Shown here one piece after another: positions 1 to 54,690 of a stretch of 64,000 nt of DNA. The stretch is from Eledone cirrhosa (lineage: Eukaryota): NCBI GenBank assembly GCA_964016885.1, contig OZ024742.1, positions 76,570,001-76,634,000 of the forward strand. Reading direction: 5' to 3'. The translations under genes and the position numbers were made by a program. The notes beneath the pieces were generated by a model. The model was not told the DNA's origin. It searched no databases and was given only the letters and a program-made list of their open reading frames with translations. Within the stretch, counting starts at the first letter, position 1. Every line of letters begins with the position of its first letter.

Positions 1-3000
1 CCTTTGTTCTGTCCTACGCAATCTTGTTTTTGTGTGTGTTGTGTGCTTAGTTTGCGCATGTTTTACATCCAGGTGTATGTGTGTGTTTTTATTTGTTTAT
101 TTATTTGTTTATTTACATGTTACTGGCTGGTGGTTTGTTCTATATGTGTGTGTGTTTTGATTTTGTCCTTAATTGTAAGTTGTGATGTTGCTATTCCATT
201 CATGTTTTCTATCTAATTTTGGTTAGAGTTCATTTATGTTTATTGCCTCTGTGATTTGTCTAAACATTGTGTATTTTCTGTGTGTAGATTCTATTTTTAT
301 TTCTATGTTCTCTAATTTGTCCTTATGTTCTATTTTAGCATGTTGGTGGAGTATTGATGATTCTGTTTTACCTAGAAGTTCTCGCCAGTGTTCATTTAAC
401 CGTTCTCCTATAATACGAGCTGTCTCACCTATGTACACTATATTCTTATACTTACATTATCCTTCAGTACATCTTATGCTATATACTACATTTCTAGTTT
501 TACAGTTAATATGGGGGCTTAGTTTACAGATTATGCATTTCTTATCTATACAGGGAGGTCTTTGAAAAGGGTATGTATTGCTAATAATTGTTTTTATGGA
601 GGTACCTGGTCTTTCTACTATCTTAATACTAAGTTTATGTTTATCTAAGGCCCTTCTAAATTCGTAAGCTACTCTAGCGGTTGTATTGATGAACATTACA
701 CTCTGGTATTTATTGCTATCATACCACGTTTCTCATCACCCGTACCAAATCCGCAATCAGTATGTTGATTTTGGTGTGATCCGAAACAGCTGAATTTCGG
801 TGGATCAGATATTTGGAAGTCATGGGTTTGGCATAATGAGAACGGAGGATTTGTTTTTTTTATAATTAATGGTTTCTAACCAGAGCTCTGCGTCTATTAC
901 AGGTAATCGATGGTTGAGGTGTTTGCTTGGGTAGTCTATAGTAACACTAATACTCTGATGGATGGAGTTAGCTATTTGCTGGATGCTTTCCATTGTGTTT
1001 TTTTCTAATTCCTGACTGTCCTCTAGTGGGGGTGTTTGTACTACCATGTTTATATCATCAACGTAGCGGAAGTACATTATCAGGATTAAGAGGTTGCTGT
1101 CTTCTAATTGTTCTTTAAGTTTAAGTTTAAGTTAATTGTCCCACCATACCATGAATAGATTACCTATGTCACCTGTAATCCTAACACCAATGGCTGCTCA
1201 CTCCTCATGGGCATATGTTTTTCCATTAAATTTGAACATATGTTCCTTAAGGGTTAGTATTATACTGACCCCCACGTCATGTGCAATCATTTTCTTTAGT
1301 TCATCGTGGTTTTCGGTGGTCCGTATGGCTCTGGTCCACCCGTTCCATCTTTCTGTGTGGGTTTTCTTGGCCATTGAGGTAATGGTAGGTTGTCTGCCTC
1401 TTGCTGGTCTTGTAGGGCACAGGTTGCTAAGGTCATATGTATCTAGATAATCATTACTATAGGTAAGTTTAAGTAGGAGTCCCAGCTCACTGGTATCAAT
1501 CCCACGGAATTCAACATTGATCTCACTGATCATTTCTACGCATTTCTCCACAGCAAAATCCACGTCAATGGATGGATAGAGGGACAAAACATCCATACTA
1601 CCTATTATACAGTTTGTTAGGTCCCTAGATCGGTTATTTTCGCTGATTCTGCTGAGGAGGTCCTCCGTGCTGTCACATATATCTGGGGACATTTCAATGA
1701 TGGGGCGTATGATCAGGGAGAGGAAGTTGAAAAGTCTGTAGTTACTAGCAATGTTAGCTCCACAGACTGGCCGTATTGGCCCATACAACGCTGGCACGTC
1801 ATTTTTCCAGGCATGGAAGTTGTTGGCAGTCCATTTATTGTGCTGCATTATGTTTGTCCATATCATCATATGAGCATTGAGGGTTTTCTCCCTATCCTCA
1901 TTCTCTTGTGGTGTTACTTCTCTTGTGTTCGTGATATGGAGTTGCATTACCTGGATGTAATTTGACAGACTGTCAACCGACATTCTGCCAGACTTGTCTG
2001 TTGGAAAGCATGCAATATCTCCATTACGCGAGCGCTGCATGAGCTTACGCAAGCCATTTGCAGAAGTTTCTCCCAGTTGCTGGGCCTCCATTCTATTTTG
2101 CCTCTTGCTATACTGTTCTATAATATTTCTAAGGTTAGATCTAGTTATACTAAATTGTGTTTCTGTTTGTTCATCGACTAGCGTTGGCAATTGCGTGCGT
2201 TTGTTAAAAGCTAAAGTCTTGGCGTTGACTTGTCGTAGGTCGAAGGACATATCGGAATGATTACAAAAAGTAGAATTCCAGGCTGCTGCTTTATGTGTAC
2301 TATTGCTATTTTTATTGTTAGTTGTGTTGTTTCTATTTCTATTTACACCAACAGCCTCATGGTTGTTTCTATGTTTCTCATTATTACTCCTGTCTCTTTC
2401 CTCTGGCTCATTGTTATTATCTACTCTATTTTATGTGTCTGTGAGTTTGTCCTGGTTATTTTCTCTGTCAGTATCGATAGTCTGCATACTCCTTTCAATC
2501 CCATTACCCTCCCTTACTTCTGTGTTACTGTCATTACCTGTTTTCTGTGTCTGTGTGTTTGTTAAGATTGTGGTGGTGGTGAGGGCATAGAATGTGTGTG
2601 TGTGTTGTTGTTGTTGTTGATGTGTGCTGTTGTTGATGTGTGTTGTTGTTGTTGTTGTCTCCGTGTATGTTATTATTGTTGTGTGTGTTGTTGTTGTTTG
2701 TGTCTATGTGTCCTTTGTTGTTGTCTCTGAGTATGTTAGTATTGTTGATGTGCGTGGTGTTGTTGCTATCGTTGTTTGTGTATGTGTGTGTGTTGTTGTT
2801 GGGATGTGTTTTGTATGTGTGTGTGTGTGCGTATATGTTGTTACTTTTGTTTTGATTTGGTTTTTGAGGTTCCAACGTAATTTTGTAAAGGATTTTTCTA
2901 TTTCTGACAAGCATTTTATCATATTTACCTTATTATATGTGGCATATTTAGGTGGTAGCTGTAATATCGATAATTCATCAGAGTCGACTGTAGTGTTGCC

Positions 3001-3209
3001 GTATATATTTGTGTTGTTGTTGTTGAATTCATCTGTTAATGGGATGTCCGCCATGTTCATGAATTTAATTTATAAATTTATAATAAATTGGAGTGACACA
3101 CTGGTGCGTGTGTTTCTTATTGGCAACATGACCCTCCCAAAGTATAACAATATCGGTTTCAACACATGTTTTGAGATAAAGAATCTTGCTAAACAAATTC
3201 AGAAACGAA

Positions 3210-3210
<1 letters not shown>
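1..3210 (-). mobile_element. Penelope-like retroelement (family A, copy 1), degenerate; runs off the left window edge; short inverted pLTR piece at 3061-3210
   Basis: Minus-strand ORF pieces carry TDKSG, SMDVLSLYPSID, YFRYVDD and GIY-YIG (VVYSIRC...YIGETAR...ERLNEH) motifs. It is clearly homologous along its length to 43383-47287. The right end abuts (TA)n. Confidence 0.95.
170..3060 (-). pseudogene. Disrupted PLE RT-GIY-YIG ORF
   Basis: Split into ORFs 2704-3060, 1198-2250, 820-1077, 457-696 and 223-438 by frameshifts and TAA stops. It also has a 45-bp deletion removing LRKDHK and a roughly 230-bp deletion near position 725 relative to copy 2. Confidence 0.9.
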
Positions 3211-3252
<42 letters not shown>

Positions 3253-4922: not shown

Positions 4923-5007
<85 letters not shown>

Positions 5008-8600: not shown

Positions 8601-9509
8601 TCAAAATTAGAGAGGTTGCCCAGTACTCGCGACGTTGCTGACTTTTTCTCTGGTGTTGGCTCCGTTGTTCACCCCTTCCTTTGCATTTTCTTTAATATTG
8701 TAGTTTATGTATATATTTAAAATATATTTGTTATGTTATTCTATTGTAAATTTATTTATATGCTCTGTTTATACCCTCAAAATTCTATGAAACTACATAC
8801 ATGTTGCAACTCTTTCTATATATATATATATATATCACACACACACACATGTACATATACATCTAAAGAGAGAAAGAGAGATGTAGAGAGAGAGAGTGAG
8901 ATAGGTCGTTATACAGAGAGAGGTGAGGTACAAGATAATCAGATAGAGATACAGAGAGGGAATGGCGACGATCGCTGGGTCACACACACACACACAAACA
9001 TATATATATAAAGAGAGAGAGAGAGAGAGAGAGTTCTGCGCGTTCTTTATTGTTCTCCATTCTGTAGGAGGTAGAGAGAGAGGGGGGTATGAGTGAGAGA
9101 GGGAGAGAGAGAGAGGGTATGAGAAAAAAGGGAAAGGGGTTGAGACAAAAATAAAGTTAAGCAAAGAATCGCTGCTTTCAACATTAACGGGAGCTTCTTA
9201 AACTATTAAATTCTATCTGTGGACGTAGAATTAAATATTTCGAGAAACGTTGCAACCTAAGTAAAACAGGAAGACGATATTTTGGTTCGTGAAGACGTTC
9301 CCTGGTAATGAACGGAAAAAAAGCGAGGATAATACGTCGTTATCTGGAACGAAAAGAACAATTTCATGCAAAGACAAGACCAAGTTTAAGGTGTAAATGG
9401 AGTCATTAGACTAATATTATATTTAAAATAACCGAATGATTTCCAGCCCAGGAGTTTAAGAATGATGTAAATAAAGTTGTAAACGAAAATGACGGAGGTT
9501 ATTAAAATA

Positions 9510-9622
9510 GTTGTTTCTACTTTTGGCACAAGGCCAGCAATTACCCAGTACATTACTGGTACTTTATGTTATCGACCCCCGTAAGGATGAAAGGCAAAGT
9601 TAAACTCAAAGGCATTTTAACT
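9510..9622 (-). mobile_element. Nin-domain tRNA-SINE, 5'-truncated
   Basis: Matches the 3' part of the SINE at 28557-28743. Confidence 0.85.
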
Positions 9623-13254: not shown

Positions 13255-13688
13255 AAGATAGAATACAATAAACAAAACAGTCACCCACACACGAACACAC
13301 TATACACACACGCATATGCATGAGCAAAGAAGAAGACAAAAATAAATAAATAAACAGATTATATAAAAATGGCGTAGACATACAATACAACAGGAGGAAA
13401 CATAATAGCACCACTGACGATGTTGTAAATGTGCAACGAAATAGCTTTGTTAGACTATATATATGTGTTTGTGTCTATATTATATCTGTATTTTTGACCG
13501 TTGCTCGGGCAATAGTAAACATTGAGGACCGAATAAATCAACTGATATAAAAGATACAGAAGCGAAAACCAACCAAACAGTGAGTGTGTTCTGTTATTAA
13601 TTCTGGCAATATTATTACAACGATATGACCCTCCCCAAGTATAACAATATTTGTTTCGACATACGATTTCATATAAAAAATCTTGCAA

Positions 13689-13694
<6 letters not shown>
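13255..13694 (+). mobile_element. Solo pLTR of PLE family B (related to family A)
   Basis: Homologous to 21650-22100 (reverse complement). Contains a hammerhead motif and ends with [23 protein letters not shown] before (TA)n. Confidence 0.8.
13407..13453 (+). ncRNA. Minimal hammerhead ribozyme motif (degenerate, family B)
   Basis: CTGACGA-T-GTTGTA-aatg-TGCAAC-GAAA-tagCTT; stems I and III are imperfect. Confidence 0.6.
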
Positions 13695-13747
<53 letters not shown>

Positions 13748-20623: not shown

Positions 20624-22100
<1,477 letters not shown>

Positions 22101-23417
22101 TAGTGTGTATAGTGTTGTGTCTGCTGGGTGACTAGTGTGTGACTAGTGAGAAAAGCAGTCTAATTTTTACTGAAGGGTATCATAAAATAAATAAATAAAT
22201 AAATAAATAGACACATCAACAAATAAAGGTTATTCTTCTGATGAACGGCATAGCTTAAGGTAAGTGATAATATCGTTTACTAAAGTTGTTTGAACAATTT
22301 CTCATTCCAGAAGCCCTATTCAAATACCAAAATTTACAAGAACACTAGAACTTGACATGTTGATTATTATAAATTTATGAGAGAAATGTCATTGTTGACT
22401 CGGCTGTGTCTCTTTGTCATTTGACTCTGCTATTGTTCGAGGAACAGCGACATGACGAGTGCTTTCTGAAGTCATATAAGCAATAGATTTTGATGCGAAT
22501 GTATTAGTATTTAGACATAATATTACTTCGGGTCTCTCTTTCTCTCTCTCTCTCTCTCTCACTCTCTCTTTGTTTTGTTTCGTGACTGTATGGCTATTGG
22601 TTTGGAAGCGAAAGATCTAATAGTATTAAAATCTACGGCGAAAGAAAATAAAGCAAAATCATAAAATGCAGGAGAATTCTATTCAATTCTGATTAATTTC
22701 GAATTAAATGAAAATACCAATTTAGATATATAGAGCAAAACATTTAAATATAATTTTGAGTAGATTTTGGTATGATGTGTAATTTTATTGAATCATTTTC
22801 AGTTAAGCGTACATTTAGAAAATATCAGTAGTTGTTTAAAACGTTTATCAGAAAAAGAAAATAGTACCCAAATCATTAACGTATTACATTGACTAGTTGT
22901 AAACATGACAAAGAAAGGCGGATGTAAATTGTACTTCATTGTTCTATCTGAGTAATCGATTTTAAATCTTTTCAATATATTAGTGAATATATATATATAT
23001 GTATGTATCCATGTATGTATATATATACGTACGTATGTATGTAAGTATGTATGTAAGTATGCATGTATGGATATGTGCATGTCCTTATGTATTCTAACAT
23101 ACACTTATGTAAATATATATATATAATAATAATAAATGTGAAGACTAAAATCCGAAGAGGGCTCGATAAGGAATATATATTTATATATAATATATATGTA
23201 TAAACCCGTAGAGTAAATATTTCTTAAAATAACAGATTAAATACCAATTTAGGTATATAAAGCAAAACATTTGAAGAGAAATATGTTGAGTACATTTTCG
23301 TATGATGTGTAATTTTCGAAATAATATTTACTTCTGCGCCCACAGACGGATTTATTTTAGTTTCAGAAGATTTCGTTATGGGTGAAAGCAGCAATTCTTT
23401 GCTTAATCTTTAATCTG

Positions 23418-26165: not shown

Positions 26166-28556
26166 AGTGACTTTTAATCGTAATCCTGGTAAGACTTCCA
26201 TCAATAAGGGTGTCTCACAAATGTTCGAACATTTCTTTGTATGGGTCATTGATCTGTATTGAAGGATATCATATATTTTGTAGGTTAAATTGAACTTATA
26301 TTATCCTAGTAATTGAAGTGTAAATATTATTACTTCTTGGAAATACAAATTCTTTCTTAAAAATAAAAGGACCTCAGTACATTTATTGAAAGCTTCACCC
26401 ATGTTTGATTGTCAAAGATCATATACTCACACTTATTTAATTTGTCCCATAGAGTTTAATAGTGGATAATTCTACATCTGACATAAAAAAAACTTCATGA
26501 AAGAATGTTTTCTATATAGATATATTAAATGCAATTTAAATGATAAAGTTATATCATTATTTTTTTCAAACTTCCAATTAATACTGATTAATTAAAGTGC
26601 GTGCAAAATAAAAATAAATTATGCCGGATGTTTTACTTGGTATGTAACTAAATTGCATACTTGCCATAGTCTCATTTCATTAGAAATATAACTACACGGA
26701 AGTCGATCACTACAGGTTCAAATAAGGATATGATATTTATATTCAATGAATGCTAGAAAGAATTATGCATTATCCATAGGGAACTTAAATATTAAATAAG
26801 TAATCACTTTATAAAATATCCTGGAATATTTAATATCGATTCAATAATAACGGGATGAGTCAATTCCATAGGTCAATAGAGAGCAAGAACTTAATTGAAT
26901 GTAAACAAGGTCATCAGAAGACATTGATTATGCCTTTATATATTTGCGTCAGTGGGAAGGATTTAAAGACGTGTGAGAATAGATCCTCGTGCTGAGGGTG
27001 TCTCTGGCCATTCTCTGTGGTAATGCTTTTGCCATTTTTTATGTTATTGTATTGCGATTAACACAAACAACTTTAAACATCGTGAAATAAAATCTATGAA
27101 ATCTTTGAATCTATGCTAAATTAGATATGCTGCAATACAGTAGCCTCCGAGTAATTTGTGAGGAAATTATAGTTATTTAAATCATATTGTAAATATTGAT
27201 CTTTTAAAATAAATAACTCTGCATATTATGTTTTATGACATTACAATTATTTAAAATAAGAGTGCTATACATTGAATAAATAGGCATTTCATTATCGAAT
27301 CTATGGGGCGTACACGAAAAGTTCAAAACGACTCGAAAACAAGGGTTAAACTGTTGTTATATTCTACATCTGGCAATACTGTTGTTAACTTGTAGCTGTA
27401 TGGTAAACTTGATTAAACAGACTGATGATAAATGCCATCTAGCCATGAGTCTTAATTATCATGAATGTTAAGAGGTGCCTATATCCATTATTATATGAAT
27501 GTTGTTATCGGTAGTACGTTATTTGTTGATGGTATTGCTGCCATATCTAGCAAGTTAGGAAACTAGCCATAATCTCTCTCGAAATCAATCCCATGTTCTC
27601 TTGCTAACTTGTTTGACTATCTTCACGTTCCATTAAGGTGAACTCTTAATCCGAGAATCCACGAGCTACGACTCTGTCACTGCCTCCACCCATGTCAATT
27701 CGGCTGTAAACACAGACACGACCGTCTCCAATACAGAAGAGACATAGCTGACCAAAAACCGAGGCTTGAACAATTGCTTCCTTTTCACGCCGGTCGCAGT
27801 TGAGACCTCGGGTAGCCTCGGTGTTGAACAGCTGTGCTCCGCAAAATCAGGAAGATTCCCCAGATCGCCTATGGATTGAGCTCCATCAGGTGGGGTGGCT
27901 CGTGCAGTGGGTGTCGGTGGCCATTCACCCCGGCAATGCCTTCGTCAAATTACCTAAGGCGAAGCCTTTACCAATGTGTCTGTAGTGCGCTTCAGAAACC
28001 TCCTTTGATACGGGTGTATGGTGTTTTGTCATCCTACTTTCTTTTCTATCGTTGCTTTATTTCTTTTTTTTGTTCTTTTTTCCTCTCTCTCTTTTCCGTT
28101 TCAATTTTGCCACTTTTGTTGTAGAATTTCAATAAAACTTCAAAACATTACGGTTTCCTCTGTTTGAAGCGTGCTTTGTCATTTGAACTGTAGTTGCAAG
28201 ATCGGGATGTTCCGTCCATCAAACAACTAGAAAATTATCGAAGAAAGATACGGTGGTGAATTCTACTTTAATAAATTAAAGGAAAGAACCACGCGCTCAT
28301 TATTTGGTACATGAAAAAGCCCATATTAATAGAAAAACACCCGGTCTTCAATATCATGTACATGACGATAAATAACAAAGTGTCTACACTCCATAATTTA
28401 GGATGTTATTATTCACATTTATTTCATTGATTCTTACAGTACAGATAACAAAAAAATAAAAATACACCCGGTTCCTGATATTTATCTGGACTTGAAATTG
28501 TGTATGTCATACCTTATATCCAAATTGAGAATGGTCTTAGCGTTAATATAGTCAAT

Positions 28557-28743
28557 AATTGTTTCTACTTTTGGCACAAGGCCAGCAATTACCCAGTGTA
28601 TTACTGGTACTTTATTTTATCGACCCCGTAAGGATAAAAGGCAAAGTTAACCTCGGCAGGATTTGAACTCAGACCGTAAAGGGACGTAACTATGCTCGAA
28701 AGATGGCGTCCGACCCTCGACCAATACTGCCAATTCACTGCCC
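28557..28743 (-). mobile_element. Full-length Nin-domain tRNA-SINE with 19-bp TSD
   Basis: Minus strand has A box TGGCAGTATTGG, B box GAGTTCAAATCC and core GAGGTTAACTTTGCC...GGGGTCGATAAAATAAAGTACCAG. TSD CGTTAATATAGTCAATAAT at 28541-28559 and 28746-28764. Confidence 0.9.
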
Positions 28744-30321: not shown

Positions 30322-30396
30322 TTACGGGGTCGATAAAATAAAGTACCAGTAATGCACTGGTTAATTGCTGGCCTTGTGCCTAAAGTAGAAACAATT
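30322..30396 (+). mobile_element. Nin-domain SINE, heavily 5'-truncated
   Basis: 3' 75 bp of the SINE, flanked by duplicated ATTATTTAATTACAAT. Confidence 0.85.
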
Positions 30397-31273
30397 ATTT
30401 AATTACAATCAATTTTATAACTATCAATACGATCTGAAGTTATTCATTCTGAGCAGGATAGTACGAAATAATTAGTAAAAGCCATGTTAACTATAAAAGG
30501 ATCTGGATTATTTCTGTGTTTTCTTTGTAATGTACCTGTTGAATTGACGTGTTCTTTCTTGCTAATGATAGTAACGCATCCAGCCTAATTAATGAAGATG
30601 GTTCTTTGTTTTAGTTGGCTAGCCAGACATTTATATGAAATATGGATTCTGGAATGACATCATTAAAATTTCAAATTTAATAATCAAAATTGATATACAT
30701 TCACTTATCTTTGTATGTCCAGGTTATACCACATATTACGTATGTTCAGCTTGTACATATCGTTGCGAATGTTTGATCTAGAGAGCCCAAATATCGAACG
30801 CATTTCAGTCAAGGCCATCCTGTCTTTTATTTAGACATGGTGTATCTAAATCCGCATTAACCAATATAGTCTCTGATATCAGTTTTTATTTTAGGATGAT
30901 AAATGATACACCTTTGTTGATTTTACATTGGAACAAGTGGTTATTTACATTCCGCTAAAAGAGAAAGAGAGAGATAGCGACGAGATAGGTATAATCAAAT
31001 GATTCCTCTATTAAGTGTACCAACTAATTTGTCTCTTAATATTTTTTCATATTTAATATAATCTATAATCATGTGCATCTAGCGATGAAGTGTAGGTTAA
31101 ATACTGGATACAAACAATTCATTTTGAAAACTTTCTAATTTCTTGGCCGCCAATAACCCGAATATATACATTATAGACAAGCATTTGGTTCACATAAACT
31201 TACGTCTTGGTAAATTCGAATATATCGATTTTAAATTAGTATACCTTGATTAGATTGTGTGTATTATTGTATG

Positions 31274-31451
31274 GGCAGTATCGGTAGAGGGTCGGACGCC
31301 ATGCTTTCCCAGCAAAGAGTTACGGCCCTTTATGGTCTGAGTTCAAATCCCGCCGAGGTTAACTTTGCCTTTCATCCTTACAGGGTCGATAAAATAAAGT
31401 ACCAGTAATACACTGGGAATTGCTGGCCTTGTGCCAAAAGTAGAAACAATT
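31274..31451 (+). mobile_element. Nin-domain tRNA-SINE
   Basis: GGCAGTATCGG A box, GAGTTCAAATCC B box, same core and tail. Confidence 0.9.
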
Positions 31452-31810
31452 ATTTTGTATATAGTACGTTGTTGCATTATTTTTAATTCTTCTATATTTT
31501 ACCACAAAATACTATGTAATCCTAAATGCTAAACTCGAAATGCTCCAGCACCTGATTTCATTCCCAAAATATGTACTATAAAAACATTTAGCCTGATTTC
31601 TGTTTTGTTTATAGCATTTGTCGAGCAATACTCATAAATACTACAGACGAGAACGGTTGATTAAATTATACATCAAATTTCTTATTCACATGGTACCTAT
31701 TATTAGAGGTTTTGTGTATGTTTTTAGCTATATATTTGGGATATTTTTCTATATTTATATTTGCTAAATTATCCTATTTTCTTTATAGACACATTATTAT
31801 ACGTTGCAAA

Positions 31811-31982
31811 TTGGCAGTATCGGTAGAGGGTCTGACGCCATGCTTTGAAGCATAGTGTTACCTCCCTTAATGATATGAGTTCAAATCCTGCCGAGGTTAA
31901 CTTTGCCTTCCATCCTACGGGGTCGATAAAATGAAGTACCAGTGGGATAATGGTTGGCCTTGTGCCAAAAGTAGAAACAATT
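31811..31982 (+). mobile_element. Nin-domain tRNA-SINE
   Basis: Same motifs; imperfect TSD ATTATTATA..TTGCAAAT. Confidence 0.9.
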
Positions 31983-33039
31983 ATTATATTTTGCAAATGA
32001 AAGTTAGTTTGCATGTCTGTTCGCGCTCCAAGGTTAGTCACTTACGTTATCCCTTTCAAGAGAAGAAGTACATATCACTGGATCTCAGAGGCCATGTCAC
32101 TTGCCTCCCTTGCCATTCTAGATCTCCTTAGGTCTTACCCCATTTCAAATTGTCATCTCGTAGTTTTATCACCATTATACATTAACTAAGATAATTAATG
32201 CAAACATTTATTTCAGCATGATATGTTTTGTGAACTCTTAATTTCTGCTTGATGTGTATATTAGTATATTTGATAAATATATTTTGAAATCCTTCCCTTT
32301 AAGTCTTCCCTTGTAATTTGAAATTCCCCTCACCTAGGAGCCTCGTGACTACCGTTTGAGAATCGTTTACACACAACATATGTACAAATATCAAAAGAAA
32401 TGTATACTTTCGAAATATTCTCATGAAAACGTCTGTTTAATAGACTTCCAATTTGTTTAATATATTGTAACACTTGATACATTATTTTACAAATTTGTAT
32501 TTATGAAGACTTAGGGAAACATTATTTCAGAACTTTCTTTATACGGTCATATAGTTCCTTCCCCGGGGTTTGACAGGTGTTAAAATTTCTTTTCAAATTA
32601 AATTTATATTACAGGAGAATAAGAGGCAGATAATTTGTTAAACATACAATTTTCGAACAATGAACCTTCTGTTTACAGATGTGTCATTGTAACTTATAGT
32701 TGGGTGGTTTCAAAATAGAAGTTAACTTGGTTTTAACAGTGTTTTAACAGCATAGCATAATAATAATCTATTATGCGAGAGACCAAGGCAAATCAATTGT
32801 TAATAGTGAGGTTATAAATGTCTGCATTAATCAATGCTGAAGCCCCAAACGTGCATACACGCGTTGAAAATATTATCAAAATGCACGTATGTATAGAATG
32901 AAGATAGACAGATACACCTTACTTTCACTCACACTGCCATTGCCTTTAATAATCCGAAAATGTTGACAGTTTTTGCATGCTAGTGTGTTTGTTTAATGGC
33001 GTTTTAGTTTGATTAAAATTTTCATTAGTATAACGAAAA

Positions 33040-33290
33040 TATTATGGATTCTTATATCTTTAAATGTTTATGGAGGGTCATTTTGTTATAGTATTGCCAG
33101 CAATATATAATAAAATACACTCACTGTTTGGTTTGGGTTCGTTTTCGCTTCAGTTTATTTTTTATGTTTATAATTAATTTAGCTGGCAACCAAAGTTTAT
33201 CATTGATTGACAAACAGTTAAAAAAATATATATAAATATTGTCTCGGAGTTCTTATGTTTCCTCCCGTTGTATTGTTTGCAAACAAATTA
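33040..33290 (-). mobile_element. Old remnant of family-B pLTR
   Basis: GGAGGGTCAT...ACACTCACTGTTTGGTT...TTTTCGCTTC matches 21700-21790; the hammerhead part is not recognisable. Confidence 0.6.
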
Positions 33291-34865: not shown

Positions 34866-35748
34866 TGAAATCGCAATCCGCAGTTCTGATTTTCAAAAGT
34901 AGAATTGAGATGGAGGGTTTGTGGTTTTTCTCACATCTGGTTGGTCTTTGAAAGTTACTTCTGTTTTATATGGAAAAAAGTGGCTCGAAATGCTAGGTTT
35001 TTAGAGAGTTAAATTGGTTGGTTAGTGAATAAGTATAATAAATTTCGCGCGAAATTTATTATACTTATTCCGCTGTGGCCCGTCTGTTTCTTTCTTACAG
35101 CTTCCCTTTTCTCTGTATCTCTCACTTCCTTTTACCCCCCTCTGCCAGTCACTCTCTCTGTCAGCCTCTTCCTCACACTTTCACTCACTCTCTGCTACTC
35201 CCTCACCTAATTCCTCTCGTTTGACCTGTGCGAAATCCTTTCCTCACTCACATTTCGACAAGGTCGGATGGTCTTTATTCTCTCTCGTCTACGATATCAC
35301 AGAACTTATGTTCATCGATTTCAGGGACTTGACTCCTTCTTCCTCACTTTTCGTTGCATTACCATCTTTGTTTGTTTACTGTCTCGCTCGTTCCCCCTAT
35401 TTACGTGTCCCAACGGCTTTCTTTAGCCGTTGCTCGCACCAACCAGAGGTATATGGTCTTTAAAGCGATGAAATACCAATGAAGGCTGGAAGATCACTGA
35501 TGAAGGACTAAATTTATATATATATATATATATATATTTCGTTTCTGAATTTGTTTAGCAAGATTCTTTATCTGAAATCGTGTGTTGAAACCGATATTGT
35601 TATACTTTGGGAGGGTCATGTTGCCAATAAGAAACATAGGCACCAGTTGATTTCACTTCAATTTATTATAATAAATTTATAAATTTAGGAATTTATAAAT
35701 TTCTGGTTGGTTGGTTGGTTCCACAACCAGATAGTTGTTTATATATAT

Positions 35749-35793
35749 TGTCAAAGTTCTTTCGTCATACATTATGTGACCTCTTCAGTGACT
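35749..35793 (-). ncRNA. Minimal hammerhead ribozyme motif (family A)
   Basis: Minus strand GTCA-CTGAAGA-G-GTCACA-taatg-TATGAC-GAAA-gaa-CTT-TGAC. Confidence 0.7.
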
Positions 35794-35939
35794 GGGGATT
35801 CTTTTCTTTGTTTTTGTGCTTCTGCTTTGTTCTGTCCTACGCAATCTTGTTGTTGTGTGTGCTGTGTGCTTAGTTTGCGCATGTGTTACATCCAGGTGTA
35901 TGTGTGTGTTTTTATTTGTTTATTTATTATTGTATCCCC

Positions 35940-35984
35940 AGTCACTGAAGAGGTCACAGAATGTGTGACGAAAGAACTTTGACA
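35940..35984 (+). ncRNA. Minimal hammerhead ribozyme motif (family A)
   Basis: GTCA-CTGAAGA-G-GTCACA-gaatg-TGTGAC-GAAA-gaa-CTT-TGAC. Confidence 0.75.
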
Positions 35985-36131
35985 ATATATATAAACAACT
36001 ATCTGGTTGTGGAACCAACCAATCAACCAGAAATTTATAAATTCCTAAATTTATAAATTTATTATAATAAATTGAAGTGAAAGCAATTGGTGCGTGTGTT
36101 TCTTATTGGCAACATGACCCTCCCAAAGTAT

Positions 36132-36169
<38 letters not shown>

Positions 36170-41640: not shown

Positions 41641-42642
41641 AACCCCAGATGCGTTCTTGATAATATTCTTACATGGTCATGTTTGATAATGAAAAAGGAT
41701 GGTAATATAAGGAAAACGATATCCTTGATGTTCAGATTAGTTTTATTTAATTCTATTTTACGCCCTGTACTTCACAAGGATAAAACGGTCATTGCTGAAT
41801 AACTATCATTTTTTCTTTCGAGAAATACTCGATATATAACAAGTTGCAACTCTATCCCTTCGTTAGGACTTATATGATACGAAAAGGATTTATTGATATT
41901 TCTTAATCTACTCTCATTCTAATCCATAATTAATGGAAATAAAGCCCTCTGTGTTAAAACCATTGGAATTAGCCACGTCTCATTTTTTCATAAATTCTAT
42001 TAAGTTTATACTATATTGTATGATGCTAATATTATTTGAAAAATGAACTATAATATCTTCGAGAACCTATAAAATAGTTAAAGCATTGCTGCAAATGAGT
42101 ATTAAATCTTTATGAGTCATTGTCATGAAACCACTCATTGAAGATTTATGACGCTATAGTCATAATTGCGCTATGAAAATTGGTTTATACGTACAAGTTA
42201 GCCTGAAATATTATTCTGGTAGTGAACGTTCAAACATGTCTTTGAAATAACTTTAAATTATTCTTACGCATCGTTTGCCTGTATTCGTATTTGCCTATTT
42301 GTTTTCCATGTGTTCTAAAAGTCATTTATGTATCTCATTGCATTTACATCTCAACTAATCAAATTATAGAAAATTATACGAGTTTATCCATGAATTATAT
42401 ATATATATATATTTCGTTTCTCAATTTGTTTAGCAAGATTCTTTATCTGAAATCGTGTGTTGAAACCGATATTGTTATACTTTGGGAGGGTCATGTTGCC
42501 AATAAGAAACACACGCACCAGTTGCTTTCACTTCAATTTATTATATATTTATAAATTTATAAATTTACAAATCTACAAACTTATAAATTATAAATTTCTG
42601 GTTGGTTGGTTGGTTCCACAACCAGATAGTTGTTAATATATA

Positions 42643-42689
42643 TAGTCATAGTCCTTTCGTCACACACTATGTGACCTCTTCAGTGACTA
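42643..42689 (-). ncRNA. Minimal hammerhead ribozyme motif (family A, inverted arm)
   Basis: Reverse complement of 47067-47113. Confidence 0.8.
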
Positions 42690-43384
42690 GGGATTCCTTT
42701 CTTCGTTTCTGTGCCTTTTTTTTCTTCTATCCTACGCCATTTTGTTTCTGTGTGTGTGTTGTGTGCTCAGTTTGCGCATGTGCCACATCCGGGTGTCTGT
42801 GTGTGTTTGTGTTCATTTTTCTATTTGTTTATTTATTTATTGTTGGTTGGTTGTTTGTTCTATGTGTGTGTGTGTTTTCATTTTTTCCTGTGTGTGTTTT
42901 CATTTTGTGTGTGTTTTCAATTGTAAGTTGTTTGTTCTATGTGTGTGTGTGTTTTCATTTTGTCCGTAATTGTAAGTTGTGATGTTGCTGTTCCACTCAT
43001 ATTTTCTATTTAATTTTGGTTTTAATTCTTTTATGCTTACTGCCTCTGTAATTTGCCTAAACATTGCGTCTTTTCTGTGCGTGGATTCTATTTTTATTTC
43101 TATGCTCTCTAATCTACCCCTGTGTTCTATCTTAGCATGTTGGTAGAGCACAGATGATTCTTTATTATCTTGGAGGTCTCGCCAGTGTTCATTTATTCGT
43201 TCCCCTATACTACGAGCTGTCTCACCTATGTACACTATATTTTTGTTTCTACATTGTCCTTCAGTACATCTTATGCTATACACTACATTTCTAGTTTTAC
43301 AGTTAATATGGGGGCTTATTTTACAGGTTATACATTTCTTATCTATACATGAGGGTCTTTGGAACGGGTATGTCTTGCTAATGT

Positions 43385-46300
43385 GATAAGCACTTTAACA
43401 GAAAATTAAAGTGGCTTAAACAGGCAAAGCTAAATCGGGATACTATAGAGTATACCAATAGATATCCCGACAAAATTGACGGTATCAACATGGCCGACAC
43501 CTCATTATCTGAAGAGTTCAACAATGAAAATACCAACATTTATGGAAACACGGAAATAGATAATAATGAAATGTCTGTATTACGTCTGCCACCCAAATTT
43601 GCGACATTCAAGAAGGTAAATATGATTAGTTGTCTGTCAGAAATAGAAAAATCATTTACAAAACTACGCTGGAGCATCAAAAACAAAAGCAACAATATAC
43701 GCACACACATATACTACACACATCCCAACAACAACAGACACACAGACACAAACAACAATAACAACAACAACAACAATAGCAACATACTCAGATACAACAA
43801 CAACAACAATAGCAACATACCCAGATACAATAACAACAGACACGCAGACACAAACAACAATAACAACACACACAGCAACGATAACACACACGGAGACAAC
43901 AATAACAACAACACACACATCAACAACAATAGCAACATACCCAGATACAACAACAACAGACACGCAGACACAAACAACAATAACAACACACACAACAACG
44001 ATAACACACACACACACGGAGACAACAACAAAACACATCAACAACAACACACATCAACAACAACAACACACACGCATTCAATGCCTCTCACCACCACCAC
44101 AATCTTAACAAACACACAGACACAGAAAACAAGTAATGACAGTAGCACAGAAATCAGAGAAATAAGAGAAAGTAATAGGATTAAACAGAAAAGGAGATGG
44201 GAGACTAAGGACAAAGAGAATAACCAAGACGAACACACAGACAGACAAAATAGGGTAGATAACAACATTGAGCCAGTGGAAAGAGACAGGAGTAATTATG
44301 AGAGACATAGAAACAACCATGAAGCTGAGGCTGCTGTTGTTGGTGGAAATAGAAACAACACAACCAACAATAACAATAGCACTAGTACACATAAAGCAGC
44401 AGCCTGGAACTCTCCGTTTTATAACCCCTCCGATAAATCATTCGACCTACGACGAGTTCACGCCACGACTTTGCCATTTAACAAACGCACGCAGTTGCCA
44501 TCGCAGGTCGATGAACAAACAGAAGCACAATTTAGTATAGCTAAATCCGAACTTAGAAATATTATAGAACAGTATAGCAAGAAGCATAATAGAATAGAGG
44601 CCCAGCAACTGGGAGAAGAATCTGCAAATGGCTTGCGTAAGCTCATGCAGCGCTCGCGTAATGTAGAGATAGCATGTTTTCCAACAGACAAGTCTGGCAG
44701 AATGTCGGTTGACAGCCTGCCAAACTACATCCAGGCAATGCAACCCCACATCACTAACACAAGAGAGGTAACATCACAGGAGCATGAGGATAGAGAAAAA
44801 GCCCTCAATGCCCATATGGTGATGTGGACAAATATAATGCAGCCCAACAAAAGGACTGCCAACAACTTCCAGGCCTGGAACAATGACGTGCCGGCGTTGT
44901 ATGGGCTTCGAAAAGACCATAAAACGGGCTGGGACCCTGTCACGGGACCACCAACACGACCAGTCTGTGGGGCTAACATTGCTAGTAACTACAGACTGTC
45001 CTACTTCCTCTCCCTGATCATACGCCCCATCATTGAGATGTCCCCAGATGTGTGTGACAGCACGGAGGCCCTCCTCAGCAGAATCGGCGCGGGTAACCGA
45101 TCTGGGGACCTAACAAACTGCATAATAGGCAGTATGGATGTTGTGTCCCTGTACCCATCTATTGACGTGGATTTTGCTGTGGAGAAATGCGTAGAAATGA
45201 TCAGCGAGAGCAAGGTTGAGTTCCGTGGGATTGATACCAGTGAGCTGGGACTTCTACTTAAGCTTACCCATAGTAATAGTTACCTAGACACTTATGACCT
45301 TAGCAACCTGTGCCCTACAAGACCAGCAAGAGGCAGACCACCTACCATTACCTCAATGGCCAAGAAAACCCACACAGATAGATGGAACGGGTGGACCAGA
45401 GCCATACGGACAAACGAAAACCACGATGAACTGAAGAAAATGATTGCACATGCGGTAGGGGCCAGCATAAAATTAACCCTTAAGGAACATATGTTTCCAA
45501 TTTAATGGTAAAACATATGCCCAAGAGAAAGGAGCAGCCATTGGTGTTAGCATTGCAGGCGACATAGCTAACTTATTCATGGTATGGTGGGACAGTAGAC
45601 TTAAACAAAAACTTAATGAACAATTAGAAGACAGCTTAACCCTGATAATGTACTCCCGCTACGCAGATGATATAAACATCGTAGTTAAGACACCCCCACT
45701 AAAGAACAGACAGGAACTAGAGAAAAACACAATGGAAAGCATCCAGCAAATAGCAAACTCCATCCACCAGAGCATTAGAGTTACTATAGACTACCCAAGT
45801 AGACATCCCAACCATCGATTACCTGTACTAGACACAGAGCTCTGGTTAGATACCATTAACAATCAAAAACAAATCCTCCATTCCCATTATGCCAAACCCA
45901 TGACTTCCAAACATCTGATCCACCGAAACTCGGCCATTTCGGACCATACCAAAATCAACATACTGATTGCGGATTTGGTACGGGTGATGAGAAATGTGTC
46001 CCGCATGTGCAACCCCGAAGAACTAGAGAGACACATACAACACTTCATCCACCGTATGCAGTTCTCTGGCTACAATCAGAGAGATAGAATCAGAGTGTAT
46101 AAAGGAGCCAGAACCAAATGGGAAAAAATGGTAAATAATGACATAAATGGGACCTGCCCCTTGTATAGGAGCAAATTTTGGAATAGAATAGAAAGAACTA
46201 AGAACAAGGCCAATAGAATAAACTCATGGTATGATAGCAATAAATACCAGAGTGTAATGTTCATCAATACAACCCCTAGAGGCGAACTAGCCTACAAATT

Positions 46301-46856
46301 TAGAAGGGCCCTAAATAAACATAATCTCAATATTAAGATAGTAGAAAGACCTGGTACCTCCGTAAAAACACTTATTAGCAAGACATACCCGTTCCAAAGA
46401 CCCTCATGTATAGATAAGAAATGTATAACCTGTAAAATAAGCCCCCATATTAACTGTAAAACTAGAAATGTAGTGTATAGCATAAGATGTACTGAAGGAC
46501 AATGTAGAAACAAAAATATAGTGTACATAGGTGAGACAGCTCGTAGTATAGGGGAACGAATAAATGAACACTGGCGAGACCTCCAAGATAATAAAGAATC
46601 ATCTGTGCTCTACCAACATGCTAAGATAGAACACAGGGGTAGATTAGAGAGCATAGAAATAAAAATAGAATCCACGCACAGAAAAGACGCAATGTTTAGG
46701 CAAATTACAGAGGCAGTAAGCATAAAATAATTAAAACCAAAATTAAATAGAAAATATGAGTGGAACAGCAACATCACAACTTACAATTACGGACAAAATG
46801 AAAACACACACACACATAGAACAAACAACTTACAATTGAAAACACACACAAAATGA
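43385..46856 (+). CDS. PLE polyprotein: reverse transcriptase plus C-terminal GIY-YIG endonuclease; 5'-truncated, one frameshift (about 45496) and one premature stop (46728-46730)
   Basis: Motifs LPPKF, TDKSG, LYGLRKDHK, RPV, SMDVVSLYPSID, QEKGAAIG, YSRYADD, LPVLDTELW, CIDKKCITC and VVYSIRC...YIGETAR...ERINEH...QH. The frame is open upstream of ATG 43490 back to the inversion junction. Confidence 0.93.
43780..44030 (+). repeat. In-frame 120-bp tandem duplication encoding an Asn/His/Thr-rich tract
   Basis: 43801-43860 and 43921-43980 differ at one base. Confidence 0.9.
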
Positions 46857-47066
46857 AAACACACACAGGAAAAAATGAAAACACACACACACATAGAACA
46901 AACAACCAACCAACAATAAATAAATAAACAAATAGTAAAATGAACACAAACACACACAGACACCCGGATGTGGCACATGCGCAAACTGAGCACACAACAC
47001 ACACACAGAAACAAAATGGCGTAGGATAGAAGAAAAAAAAGGCACAGAAACGAAGAAAGGAATCCC

Positions 47067-47113
47067 TAGTCACTGAAGAGGTCACATAGTGTGTGACGAA
47101 AGGACTATGACTA
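47067..47113 (+). ncRNA. Minimal type-I hammerhead ribozyme motif in PLE 3' pLTR
   Basis: TAGTCA-CTGAAGA-G-GTCACA-tagtg-TGTGAC-GAAA-gga-CTA-TGACTA. Stems I and II are 6 bp each, stem III is 2 bp; predicted cleavage after A47107. Confidence 0.8.
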
Positions 47114-47279
47114 TATATATAAACAACTATCTGGTTGTGGAACCAACCAACCAACCAGAAATTTATAATTTATAAGTTTGTAGATTTGTAAATTTATAAA
47201 TTTATAAATATATAATAAATTGAAGTGAAAGCATCTGGTGCGTGTGTTTCTTATTGGCAACATGACCCTCCCAAAGTAT

Positions 47280-47287
<8 letters not shown>

Positions 47288-47350
<63 letters not shown>

Positions 47351-47358
47351 TATATATA

Positions 47359-47403
<45 letters not shown>

Positions 47404-47409
47404 TATATA

Positions 47410-47500
<91 letters not shown>
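47288..47500. repeat. (TA)n microsatellite between two fold-back elements
   Basis: Direct reading. Confidence 0.95.
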
Positions 47501-47502
<2 letters not shown>

Positions 47503-47655
47503 CAAGATGTATGGTAAGTCGTACGTAAATCGCGATGATCACGCCTGACCTGCCAAATATGCGACGGTAGCTAGTTAAGCTCTATGCGTATAAGCAGAGC
47601 AGAAATATTAAGGAAAAAGAATAAAGGAACTTTTATGGCATTATAACAAGTTTAT

Positions 47656-47702
47656 TGCCGACAGCCGTTTCGTCCGACCATATGGTGGGACTTTTCAAGG
47701 CA
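47656..47702 (-). ncRNA. Hammerhead ribozyme motif, U3-A8 core (family C, inverted arm)
   Basis: Reverse complement of 49371-49417. Confidence 0.85.
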
Positions 47703-49370
47703 TATAACAGGTAATTGTAAGTTCATTATTTTCATCAACGTTTCACTCAAGATTAGCAGTTTGAAATCGTGGTATACATCAACAGCTCAGCTTGTTTATC
47801 TGGGGTCTATATTCTAAGGGGGCTCTTTTATAATAGTTGTAGGACTTGTAAAAGGGATGGGTTAGAGGGAATTAAGAGAATTTGAAAAGGGCCTAAAAGT
47901 TAGGGATTGAAGGTTAAAAATTAAAGAATTTATAACTTTCGCATTAAAAGTAAAAGACTTGGGATCCCTTAAAAGCACCTTAAAAAACACCTCAATATGC
48001 GCATAAAGCTTATAAGCCCCAATAAACCTAAAAAAACAGAAGAGATTAAGAGAATAAAAAAATAAAAGGTTTCCTAAAAAATTACTTCAAAAAAAATTTT
48101 TCTAAAGAATCCCCTTAAAAAAAATTGAAGAAAATTTTCGAACATTTAATAATCCCTACGAAAGTTCTAAACTTAAAAATTAAAAATTAAAAATTACGGA
48201 AAAAAAATACTTTCAAAAAGATTTAAGAGGTTAATAAAGTTAATGATTTAAGGAATACATAATATAAATACATTTTATAATTATTGTCTTTTTACTTATA
48301 TATTTTCTTACTCATCATTTTCTTTAATCTTCGAGCCCAACTTGATAAGCTCTTTGAAAAGCTCCTTAATTAGATTACTTAAATTACTTTATTTGTTATA
48401 CCTAAGTTGTTGTATGTGTTGAAGCAGCCCTTTGGAAATTCCTCGGATCTCCCAAATTGCGTAATTTTTAATTTGTAATTTTCCTCAATTCATTTATATA
48501 TATTTTTAAAGGTTCTCTAAATTTTTTTCTTTGAGGGGTCTTTCGGAAGAGGTTGTTATTAAAAATATTAAAAAAGCCTTTTCTGAAGGATTTTTTGAAG
48601 GCTTTTTGAATTAACCTTTAATTGATTCATTTCTTTCTTAATTTTTAAATTTAATGTTCAACCTCTTAATCTTTAATTTTTAATCTTGGATATATAAGAT
48701 TTCTTAATCTTGGATATATAAGATTTCTTAATCTTAAATTCATTAAATTTTTTAATTTCTGGGTTCGGAACTCTTAAACTTCAAATCCTAACTTAAATCT
48801 TAATCTTTATATTATGTATTCCCTAAATCATTAACTTTATTAACCTCTTAAATCTTTTAGAAAGTATTTTTTTTCCATAATTTTTAATTTTTAATTTTTA
48901 AGTTTAGAACTTTCGTAGGGATTATTAAATCTTCGTATTTTTCTTGAATTTTTTTTAAGGGAATTTTTTAGAAAAATGTTTTTTGAAGTAATTTTTTAGG
49001 AAACCTTTTATTTTTTTATTCTCTTAATGTCTTCTGTTTTTTTAGGTTTATTGGGGCTTATAAGCTTTATGCGCTTATTGAGGTGTTTTTTAAGGTGCTT
49101 TTAAGGGATCCCAAGTCTTTTACTTTTAATGCGTAACTTATAAATTCTTTAATTTTTAACCTTCAATCCCTAACTTTTAGGCCCTTTTCAAATTCTCTTA
49201 ATTCCCTCTAAACAATCCCTTTTACAACTCCTACAACTATTATAAAAGAGCCCCCTTAGAATATAGACCCCAGATAAGCAAGCTGAGCTGTTGATGTATA
49301 CCACGATTTCAAAGTGCTAATCATGAGTGAAACGTTGATGAAAATAATGAACTTACAATTACCTGTTATA

Positions 49371-49417
49371 TGCCTTGAAAAGTCCCACCATATGGTCGGA
49401 CGAAACGGCTGTCGGCA
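49371..49417 (+). ncRNA. Hammerhead ribozyme motif, U3-A8 core (family C)
   Basis: TGCC-TTGAAAA-GTCC-cACCAtaTGGTc-GGAC-GAAA-C-ggct-GTC-GGCA; canonical GUC triplet, predicted cleavage after C49413. Confidence 0.85.
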
Positions 49418-49464
49418 ATAAACTTGTTATAATGCTATAAAAGTTCCTTTATTCTTTTTCCTTA

Positions 49465-49496
<32 letters not shown>

Positions 49497-52301: not shown

Positions 52302-52416
52302 GAGAGAGTGAGAGAATATAATATTTATTATCTATACACCTATTTTTATTCCTGTCATATTTAATACGGTGTATTCGCCTGCCTAACATTTAACCATATA
52401 AGCAACGGTCACTAAT

Positions 52417-52602
52417 AATTGTTTCTACTTAAGGCACAAGGCCAGCAATTACCTAGTACATTACTGGTACTTTATTTCATCGACCCCGTAAGGATGAAAG
52501 GCAAAGTCAACCTCGGCGGGATTTGAACTCAGATCGTAAAGGGACGTAACTCTATGCTTCAAAGCATGGAGTCCGACCCTCTACCGATACTGCCAATCCG
52601 CC
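52417..52602 (-). mobile_element. Full-length Nin-domain tRNA-SINE with 17-bp TSD
   Basis: A and B boxes plus core; TSD CAACGGTCACTAATAAT at 52403-52419 and 52602-52618. Confidence 0.9.
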
Positions 52603-53371
52603 AACGGTCACTAATAATGTATGTGAAAAAGCACGAAGTAACTGCAATGTTGAATATAAAGAAAAATGAATAAACGTTATAATCAGCTACTCTGTACCAC
52701 GTAGAATTATTATTATTATTATTGATTGCTACGGTTGACGGAGACTCGGCTCTGTAAGGTATTGTAAATTTTGAACGCTATAACAATTGTAAATTGTTTA
52801 AAACTTGTAGACAAAAACACCCTCCTCCTCGTGAGAGGGGTATTTCTGCCCGTTATTTGGCCCTTCGGGGTTAAATAACTGCTTATTGGGGTTTTGTACC
52901 CAATATTTATTTTAAACAAAAAAAAACAACATGGCTACAAAAAAGAATTTTCATAGGTCACTCCCACTCATTCCGTCTTCTTCTTCCTCAATCGTCAATA
53001 CAGCAGAGAGAAGATTGTCTCTCTCCCTCCCTTCTTTAAATGTGTCTCTCTCCATCCCTTCTCTTTCGCAAGCGACGACAGAAAAGAAAAGTCTCGTGCA
53101 AAGCGTGCAAGATTTCTCCACGACGATGAAACAGGTGTGCGGGAAATACGAAAACCCATTTCATTCGTCTGACGTCAGGAATAATAGCAGTAGCAGCCGT
53201 AATAACAACAGCAACAGTGACAATGAAAACAACAGTAGCAGCCGCAACAGCATCAGCAGCAGCATAAACAACAACAGCATTAGCAGCAGCAACAACAACA
53301 ACAACCACAGCAACAGCGGCGGCGGCAGTAGTCGTAGTACCTGCAGCAACAACAAAAGTAACAGCAGCTCT

Positions 53372-54030
53372 GACGACTTTGTATTTCTCCTATACGCGGG
53401 TTTCCTGGGATTTGCGATAAGTAATCATTAGACCTCTTAGGTATCATTCCCAGAGCGCCTACAACCACTGGTATTGTTTTAGTTCTCAATTTCCACATTT
53501 TTCCAATTTCTATCTCCAGGTCCTTATACTTGCTCAATTTTTCAAATGTTTTTATAGATACATTCTTGTCTATTGGAACGGACATATCAATTAGCAGGCA
53601 TACCCTCTTTTTAAAGTCCTTCAATATTATATCAGGTCTATTTGCATCTATTTTTCGGTCTGTTTGGATGCTAAAGTTCCACAATATTGAGATGTGATCT
53701 TTTTCAAGTATGGAAGGTGGTTGATGCTCCCACCAATTCTTTTGATGGGGCAGGTCAAAATGCTTACACATTATCCAATGTATGTATTGTGCAGCTCTGT
53801 CTTGCCTGTTTAGGTATTCGGTTGGAGCTATAGGACTGCACATTGAAATTATATGGTCAATGGTCTCTGGTTGTTTTTTGCATACACGGCATAATGGGCT
53901 GCATCCATTTTTTATTATGTTGGCTTGGTAATTTTTTGTTGGCAGACACTGATCTTGTGCTGATATAATCAGTCCTTCAGTCTCCGATTTCAGTCCAGAG
54001 GATGCCAACCACTGATGGGTTAAAGTTTTT
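53372..54030 (-). mobile_element. R4/Dong-type non-LTR retrotransposon 3' fragment (CCHC knuckle plus restriction-like endonuclease)
   Basis: Open frame ETEGLIISAQDQ, CRVC....ETIDHIISMC, NRPDII, IDMSVP, EKLSKYKDL, IPVVVGALG. Confidence 0.9.
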
Positions 54031-54031
54031 A

Positions 54032-54151
54032 TTTCTTCTTCTTCTTCTTCTTCTTCTTCTTCTTCTTCTTCTTCTTCTTCTTCTTCTTCTTCTTCTTCTT
54101 CTTCTTCTTCTTCTTCTTCTTCTTCTTCTTCTTCTTCTTCTTCTTCTTCTT
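54032..54151. repeat. (TTC)n microsatellite
   Basis: Direct reading. Confidence 0.95.
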
Positions 54152-54154
54152 TCC

Positions 54155-54690
54155 AGGACGGAGTCATCAATAAATATACATGGTTTAAGAGGAATCAGGG
54201 ATAGAGATCAATAGTTGGTTTCGTTATTGTCACTTATCTCTTCAATTTGTGTTCTGAGAGGGGCTGAGCTGTCAACAGATCACCATCTTGTTATCTGCAA
54301 CTTGGGGTTACATAATAAAGCCAATGAAGCCCCCAACACTGACAGGTCGAGAATGATCTACCGGATAAAGTGGAAAGCGATGGTGGATAAGGAGGTCAGG
54401 ACTAGCTATGCAGACACTATAACATCCAAATTCTGAGAACGCACTGAATAAACTTAGGACATTGAGACAGAGTGGAGATTTATATCATCTCAACAACTTC
54501 TGCTTTTGATGTTAAATGCTGCAGTCGAAAGTCGCTTGGTGTGTCGCCGGATGGCTGGATGATCGCATGGTTCAATGAAATGGTCAAATATCACTTCCCA
54601 GCAAAGATGGAGGCCCACATAGCAAGCCTTCAAAATATGTCTCCAAAGTTGAGGTCACAAAATCAGTTAGAATGTATGGTGAAATCAAAT
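54155..54690 (+). mobile_element. RTE-clade LINE fragment (end of AP endonuclease and linker)
   Basis: Translations VLRGAELSTDHHLVICNL and AWFNEMVK. Confidence 0.7.

Follow-up and report, generated by a model that had tools for sequence, protein, structure and literature searches.

An endonuclease-bearing Penelope-like element of Eledone cirrhosa carries the start of its open reading frame at insertion ends of two fixed lengths

The window, by which we mean the whole 64,000-nt stretch of Eledone cirrhosa DNA that was analysed, contains copies of a Penelope-like element (PLE) that bears an endonuclease; these copies are dead. One of them, at 42409-47287, is 5'-truncated and consists of a 974-nt inverted arm that lies head to head with a 3.9-kb arm, with a 3-nt overlap at the junction. 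The 3.9-kb main arm carries a 5'-truncated ORF body on the plus strand (43382..46790), which corresponds to amino acids 145-1270 of the full protein and encodes, in this order, an N-rich insert, a reverse transcriptase (RT), a CX4CxxC linker and a GIY-YIG domain with a CCHH motif. It is disrupted by a frameshift near 45480-45505 and a premature stop at 46728-46730. Further downstream on the same strand are the motif AAAATGGCG (47013..47021), which is common to element families A and B and is a candidate RNA start, and a predicted minimal type I hammerhead motif (47067..47113, predicted cut after 47107). The arm terminates with the first 26 nt of the ORF (47262..47287), coding for MTLPKYNNI, which we refer to as a short (+26) end of family A, and adjoins a (TA)n target tract (47288..47500). 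The inverted arm on the minus strand (42409..43382) is also 5'-truncated and spans -880 to +86, giving a long end with a 60-nt tail and an ATG at 42494; over 914 nt, it matches the main arm with 99.6% identity.

Two additional family-A insertions are present. An inverted mini-insertion of 606 bp (35534..36139) has a minus arm with a long end (ATG 35619) and a plus arm with a short end (ATG 36114). An older copy consists of a main arm on the minus strand (1..3069), which continues beyond the window edge and has its short (+26) end 203 bases left of the window, and a short inverted arm on the plus strand (3067..3213) with a long end and an ATG at 3128. Family B, a sister family of A with 58% protein identity, is represented by a 3' end on the plus strand that stops at +71 (13265..13695, ATG 13625), one on the minus strand that stops at +69 (21648..22115, ATG 21716) and a decayed end on the minus strand (about +18; 33064..33165). 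The latter is an eighth end, which had been overlooked in the original prediction. The seven ATGs that had been described (3128+, 13625+, 21716-, 35619-, 36114+, 42494- and 47262+) were all found at these positions and strands, each followed by (TA)n. A long N-terminal peptide had been assigned to every end, and this was borne out for five of the seven, of which 3128+, 35619- and 42494- reach +86 (29 codons) and 13625+ and 21716- reach about +70, whereas 47262+ and 36114+ hold only MTLPKYNNI (9 codons, +26).

The full-length protein has 1,270 amino acids and is encoded by a single ORF with an RT and, at its C terminus, a GIY-YIG domain, as is the criterion for EN+ PLEs. In Pfam searches with slices of the protein, RVT_1 was matched with an E value of 3e-5, which is below the curated cut-off, and GIY-YIG with an E value of 8e-5, above its curated cut-off. 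The whole protein matched no Pfam family, with nothing of note for alignment members, and a search of solved structures gave weak RT matches at best (best E 0.0012). The CCHH motif is present (VVYSIRCTEGQC...YIGET at 1165-1187, with the histidines in INEH (1195) and LYQH (1211)), and CIDKKCITC at 1144 constitutes a linker zinc finger between RT and EN, which fits the Neptune/Nematis pattern CX2-5CxxC. Partial tandem and inverted pLTRs, 5' truncation and a hammerhead motif in the pLTR, the structural features of EN+ PLEs, can likewise be read from the sequence. Judged by domains and motifs, the predicted protein and its element fit an EN+ PLE. Other assignments were rejected: Penelope/Poseidon are characterized by the lack of a linker zinc finger, which is present here, Naiad/Chlamys by an N-terminal endonuclease, which is C-terminal here, and Hydra by a CxCX5C linker and the lack of the CCHH motif, which is present here. 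We found 217 homologues, and the closest database protein, with the source label Octopus vulgaris, is 69% identical. Proteins of families A and B contain an Asn/His/Thr-rich repetitive insert before the RT (aa 250-475; window 43726-44072), which is absent from distant homologues and resembles the N-rich inserts of Adineta Penelopes. About 130 residues (aa 719-852) are located between RT motifs A and B, also in homologues; this stretch appears long for a PLE and might represent an insertion into the fingers.

The single RT/GIY-YIG protein encoded by this PLE has its true start at MTLPK. When loci were fetched by the window's 5' junction, MTLPK was found in frame 146-147 codons 5' of KHFNRK, with no intron, in at least 17 of 30. 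Furthermore, residue 1 is where 143 of the 150 scored matches to aa 1-250 start, and about 50 of the 150, as counted by eye, have an open frame of at least 1,268 aa. A head-to-tail array at C6:65.203-65.231 Mb comprises six 4.27-kb units, one of them with an intact 1,270-aa ORF, and in arrays elsewhere (C1526, C4:116.27 Mb) both inverted arms contain tandem units. MTLPK likewise runs in frame into the ORF in full-length copies of family B. An in-frame stop is located 12 (A) and 8 (B) codons 5' of the MTLPK ATG, with no intervening ATG, and distant homologues start at the position aligned with MTLPK. The distance from this Met to an LPPKF-like motif, which was matched by 49 of 64 proteins, is 213 here as compared to a median of 199.5 in 48 homologues. 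The main ORF frame is indeed open at the 5' junction (43382), and the predicted continuation of MTLPK into DKHFNRK...MADT is seen, intron-free, in full-length genomic copies. At the DNA level, the uninterrupted frame rules out an intron between MTLPK and the ORF body. When the element is annotated, the upstream pLTR has to be part of the full-length consensus, and MADT is to be rejected as the start, since the frame is open and conserved for 180 codons 5' of it.

In agreement with the original prediction, families A and B have just short blocks in common 5' of the ATG, and are conserved 3' of it, free of indels and with an excess of synonymous changes (81% nucleotide identity, pS 0.44 and pN 0.13 for codons 1-28). 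The dN/dS values of 0.12 (codons 1-23) and 0.21 (codons 1-28) indicate purifying selection on the N-terminal segment; they come from a single A-B pair, in which 7.5 differences are synonymous and 8.5 non-synonymous, and synonymous sites elsewhere approach saturation. Mismatches among 63 family-A copies (13/5/7 at codon positions 1/2/3) are uninformative because dead copies drift neutrally.

The repeat unit of 4.27 kb is composed of the 3.81-kb ORF and a 0.46-kb spacer bearing the hammerhead motif. Coding copies are arranged head to tail, as either partial or full tandems, and most copies are 5'-truncated with just 9 or 29 codons. Read-through copies, listed in 31 rows with a few loci occurring twice, retain 23 to more than 1,500 nt 5' of the ATG. 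The proposal that the tail encodes the missing N-terminus was correct in that MTLPK is the N-terminus, but the tails hold only 9 or 29 of the 144 codons absent from the window copy. Joining the ends of this copy would therefore not yield the ORF, and its 144 codons were lost by ordinary 5' truncation. Similarly, coding capacity had been restricted to tandem or circle-derived copies; a second, upstream pLTR copy is needed, but a partial tandem (pLTR-ORF-pLTR) suffices.

Insertions end at two fixed positions. Using exact patterns, 13,325 family-A ends at +26, 11,956 at +86 and 474 read-through cases were counted genome-wide, so that about 2% of the counted ends read through. As reversed control patterns gave 0 matches, the end patterns do not reflect chance. 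Among 35 distinct family-A ends from loci that were chosen on upstream sequence and blind to end type, 20 are short, 14 are long and one is clipped by the locus edge. Family B ends are found at +26 and at +84 or about +70. The interval between the two ends is the PLE 'tail', which measures 60 nt (+26 to +86) in family A and about 45-58 nt in family B. Loose ends at the same +26/+86 positions were seen in Logan contigs, which possibly derive from the assembly's own sample and cannot reveal RNA ends. The insertion target is (TA)n and both ends share ATAT microhomology with it. The fold of the +1 to +130 RNA was not significant (z -0.76 and -0.01), nor was a conserved hairpin across the tail. Tail-only inserts of 60 bp (+27 to +86), flanked by a (TA)n tract on either side, have 20 exact matches in the genome, and 10 of 12 that were examined cleanly reach +86. 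At C1:132947047-132947577, at least 12 tandem repeats of a 46-bp piece that surrounds the +86 site are present.

Long and short ends are paired in inverted insertions. All 37 distinct abutting inverted pairs (20 of them at loci chosen for having a long end, 17 at others) combine a long with a short end. The same is true for 40 of 45 divergent neighbours that lie up to 10 kb apart in the first 39.6 Mb of C1, a sample ordered by position (expected 0.50; p = 3e-8). The remaining five comprise two true long+long inverted pairs, two separate insertions and one ambiguous case. The partner of the long end at 3128+, located outside the window, was predicted to be short before it was fetched, and it is. 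This near-strict pairing suggests different priming sites for the two strands of the cut target. At most head-to-head junctions, the arms adjoin each other to within a few bases, and arm lengths vary freely. Many of the inserts are inverted mini-elements of about 620 bp. It has been reported that the tail is often present at one end only (PMC3846280, PMC8557442); our literature search for a twin-priming account of PLEs found none.

More than half of the family-A arms (27 of 52) have their 5' ends at -245 to -256, upstream of the hammerhead, and none of the 52 ends is found at 5 nt or less from the predicted cut (-146). The choice of loci partly favoured arms that extend to -206 or -232, but partner arms not subject to this choice pile up at the same position. 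The copied-arm 5' ends accumulate 4-15 nt upstream of AAAATGGCG (window 46998-47021 for pile and motif). For family B, no comparable sharp pile was observed among 22 arms. The simplest reading is that the pile marks the 5' end of the RNA, an alternative being that the polymerase stops at the (CA)n tract. As the ends pile upstream of the ribozyme, a linear RNA with a 5' end is indicated. We take AAAATGGCG to resemble a YY1 site. YY1 has been described to set accurate L1 initiation (PMC11364546).

The hammerhead motif at 47067..47113 is composed of stem I (AGTCA/TGACT), CTGAAGA, a 7-bp stem II, GAAA and a 2-bp stem III. Stems I and II are part of the MFE structure, but the z score is -1.03, and an Rfam search of the whole window found nothing, hammerhead included. 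Its architecture matches a type described previously (PMC4209133), with which it has the type I topology, a long helix II, a short helix I, a minimal helix III and an extra nucleotide 5' of stem II in common, as well as the occurrence of opposite-strand pairs 100-700 bp apart. The family B hammerhead is unlike this published type, as its helix III region is longer and a stem I is not clearly visible by eye. A hammerhead about 150 nt upstream of each ATG had been predicted, which is accurate for the predicted cut site of family A (146-155 nt), but not for family B (about 180 nt) or for 3128+, which lacks an upstream hammerhead because its arm starts about 60 nt before the ATG. The distance from the hammerhead core to the ATG is 181-189 nt in family A and about 223 nt in family B.

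We propose that a linear, terminally redundant RNA would begin in the upstream pLTR, probably near -250, and extend through the ORF and the downstream pLTR past +86. The endonuclease would cut both strands of the (TA)n tract and each target 3' end would prime at one of two AUAU sites, one per strand. The truncated cDNAs would be joined head to head, resulting in an inverted insertion with one long and one short end. To yield a full-length product, the RT would start in the downstream repeat and pass the upstream ATG. Tandem arrays could possibly be explained by tandem transcripts, by template jumps or by expansion at the DNA level. From the sequence, +26 and +86 likely mark RT start positions, and we consider it highly probable that the true start, MTLPK, is found at insertion ends because the RT starts in the downstream repeat, 26 or 86 nt beyond its start codon. 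More tentatively, and with slightly less than an even chance of being right, we suggest that priming is asymmetric, with one RNP, perhaps a dimer, priming the two strands at +26 and +86, and with cDNAs that reach the RNA 5' end near -250 before they are joined head to head. If true, this process would be recorded in the 1:1 ratio of end types and the one-long-one-short pairing, and also in the inverted mini-elements of about 620 bp and the 60-bp tail-only inserts. In L1 twin priming, both target strands prime cDNA synthesis, which leads to 5' inversion; here, by contrast, the sequence copied by the two arms is the same, and copying starts from two fixed sites that are 60 nt apart.

The original prediction regarded the insertions as circularly permuted elements and invoked a circular RNA. 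According to such a model, hammerhead cleavage and ligation would produce a 4.27-kb circular RNA, on which the RT starts at +26 or +86 and rolls round to give permuted or tandem copies. The seamless head-to-tail arrays with a hammerhead motif in every spacer are in line with this idea, and small hammerhead retrozymes are reported to form circles; three family-B units that differ at just 3 sites and have one frameshift in common fit either model, and in short reads a ligated circle, being seamless, looks like a tandem. However, the last spacer of the six-unit array differs from the internal spacers at 17 sites and changes within the array are block-shared (units 1-3 versus 4-6), unlike copies of one circle, with gene conversion or an assembly error being possible causes. 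The 5' ends at -245 to -256, with none near the predicted cut, also argue against a circle. Exact unit-length permuted copies were not found either: exact patterns gave 20 loci that start at +27 after (TA)n, the 12 examined all stop by +86 without entering the ORF, and no locus starting at +87 was found. In addition, hammerhead mutations left in vitro insertion of an Anolis element unaffected (PMC11167929). We therefore regard the circular model as very improbable; permutation was not observed among the loci examined, a circular origin is without support here, and no circular RNA is required for the end layout. Neither a circular full-length PLE RNA nor a later study of the PLE mechanism was found in the literature, with subscription papers such as Arkhipova 2006 lying outside the search.

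The end points might instead be set by microhomology alone, with RNA or cDNA joining (TA)n at any ATAT and no starts defined by a protein. In favour of this, +26 and +86 are the sole ATAT ends within the first 300 nt of the family-A ORF and the long end of family B varies over AT-containing sites (+51, +62, +69-71, +84). Yet longer (TA) runs in the pLTR (-137 to -133, -50) are rarely used as ends, with one family-B case in a partial count, as the end finder needed a match crossing the ATG. Family B moreover retains +26 and +84 despite ATAT also at +18, +50 and +140, and microhomology alone yields no one-long-one-short pairing, which makes this account quite improbable. Self-priming on an antisense template has been put forward for the inverted structures (PMC3846280, PMC8557442); the tail would then result from endonuclease resolution and the start codon would be a by-product of the nuclease cutting its own pLTR. 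Some junctions are palindromic (loci L011 and L019), and self-priming would also give a tail at one end only, but the abutting junctions and freely differing arm lengths seen at most loci speak against it, as does the placement of the tail boundaries at RT start sites on the sense RNA (PMC11167929). We consider it unlikely.

The presence of the ORF start at the tail is a known and standard feature of PLE structure, and the original prediction thus rediscovered a published layout. Several systems are closely related in this respect. The Adineta vaga Penelope (Gladyshev and Arkhipova, 2013, PMC3846280) has the same layout, with a pLTR and a tail holding the first ORF codons; the element studied here is set apart by its 9 and 29 codons, 60-nt tail, (TA)n targets and more than 25,000 family-A ends, and by an N-rich insert that precedes the RT. 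For the Anolis carolinensis Poseidon PAc (Frangieh et al., 2024, PMC11167929), initiation by the RT was shown in vitro to occur at two positions within the ORF, with the tail as the interval between them, both target strands were cut and extended, and hammerhead cleavage was not needed. PAc also shares the tandem layout, AT-rich targets and a hammerhead close to its start codon. Its start sites are situated at an AC-rich stem-loop without target homology, about 111-118 nt into the ORF, whereas the starts inferred here would be at +26 and +86 at ATAT words. The PAc ribozyme overlaps the start codon, whereas it is located about 150 nt upstream here; both PAc start sites are used alike on both strands in vitro, in contrast to the one-long-one-short pairing seen here; and the linker zinc finger is absent from Penelope/Poseidon. 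Neptune/Nematis-type EN+ PLEs (Craig et al., 2021, PMC8557442) have the C-terminal GIY-YIG domain with CCHH, the CX2-5CxxC linker, microsatellite targeting, 5' truncation, an inverted 5'-truncated copy and a tail often at one end in common with our element. The published tail of 30-40 bp is shorter than the one seen here (60 nt in A), and the likeness to Neptune/Nematis is one of structural and sequence features. As the headline is in print, it carries little weight as a discovery. What the genome offers is a clean and very large natural data set on how PLEs finish integration, and the more than 25,000 ends, near-strict pairing, sharp 5'-end pile and intact young ORFs make two-site priming testable in vitro.

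Other repeats were noted in the window and at the loci studied. A retroelement-like ORF fragment on the minus strand (53280-54194; …GLIISAQDQCLPTKNY…KLSKYKDL…) is unrelated to PLE families A and B. To the right of the (TA)n tract of the PLE, a 664-bp inverted repeat (47605-48268 and 48806-49468), the copies of which are 96.7% identical, is possibly a DNA-transposon-like element. A dispersed repeat of about 100-190 bp occurs in at least six copies (9503-9622, 28546-28737, 30322-30400, 31268-31462, 31809-31988 and 52414-52597) and a 480-bp repeat is found at 4975, 54724 and 59780. Lastly, a fragment of a different, distant GIY-YIG PLE adjoins one family-B insert (locus L120:3-293).
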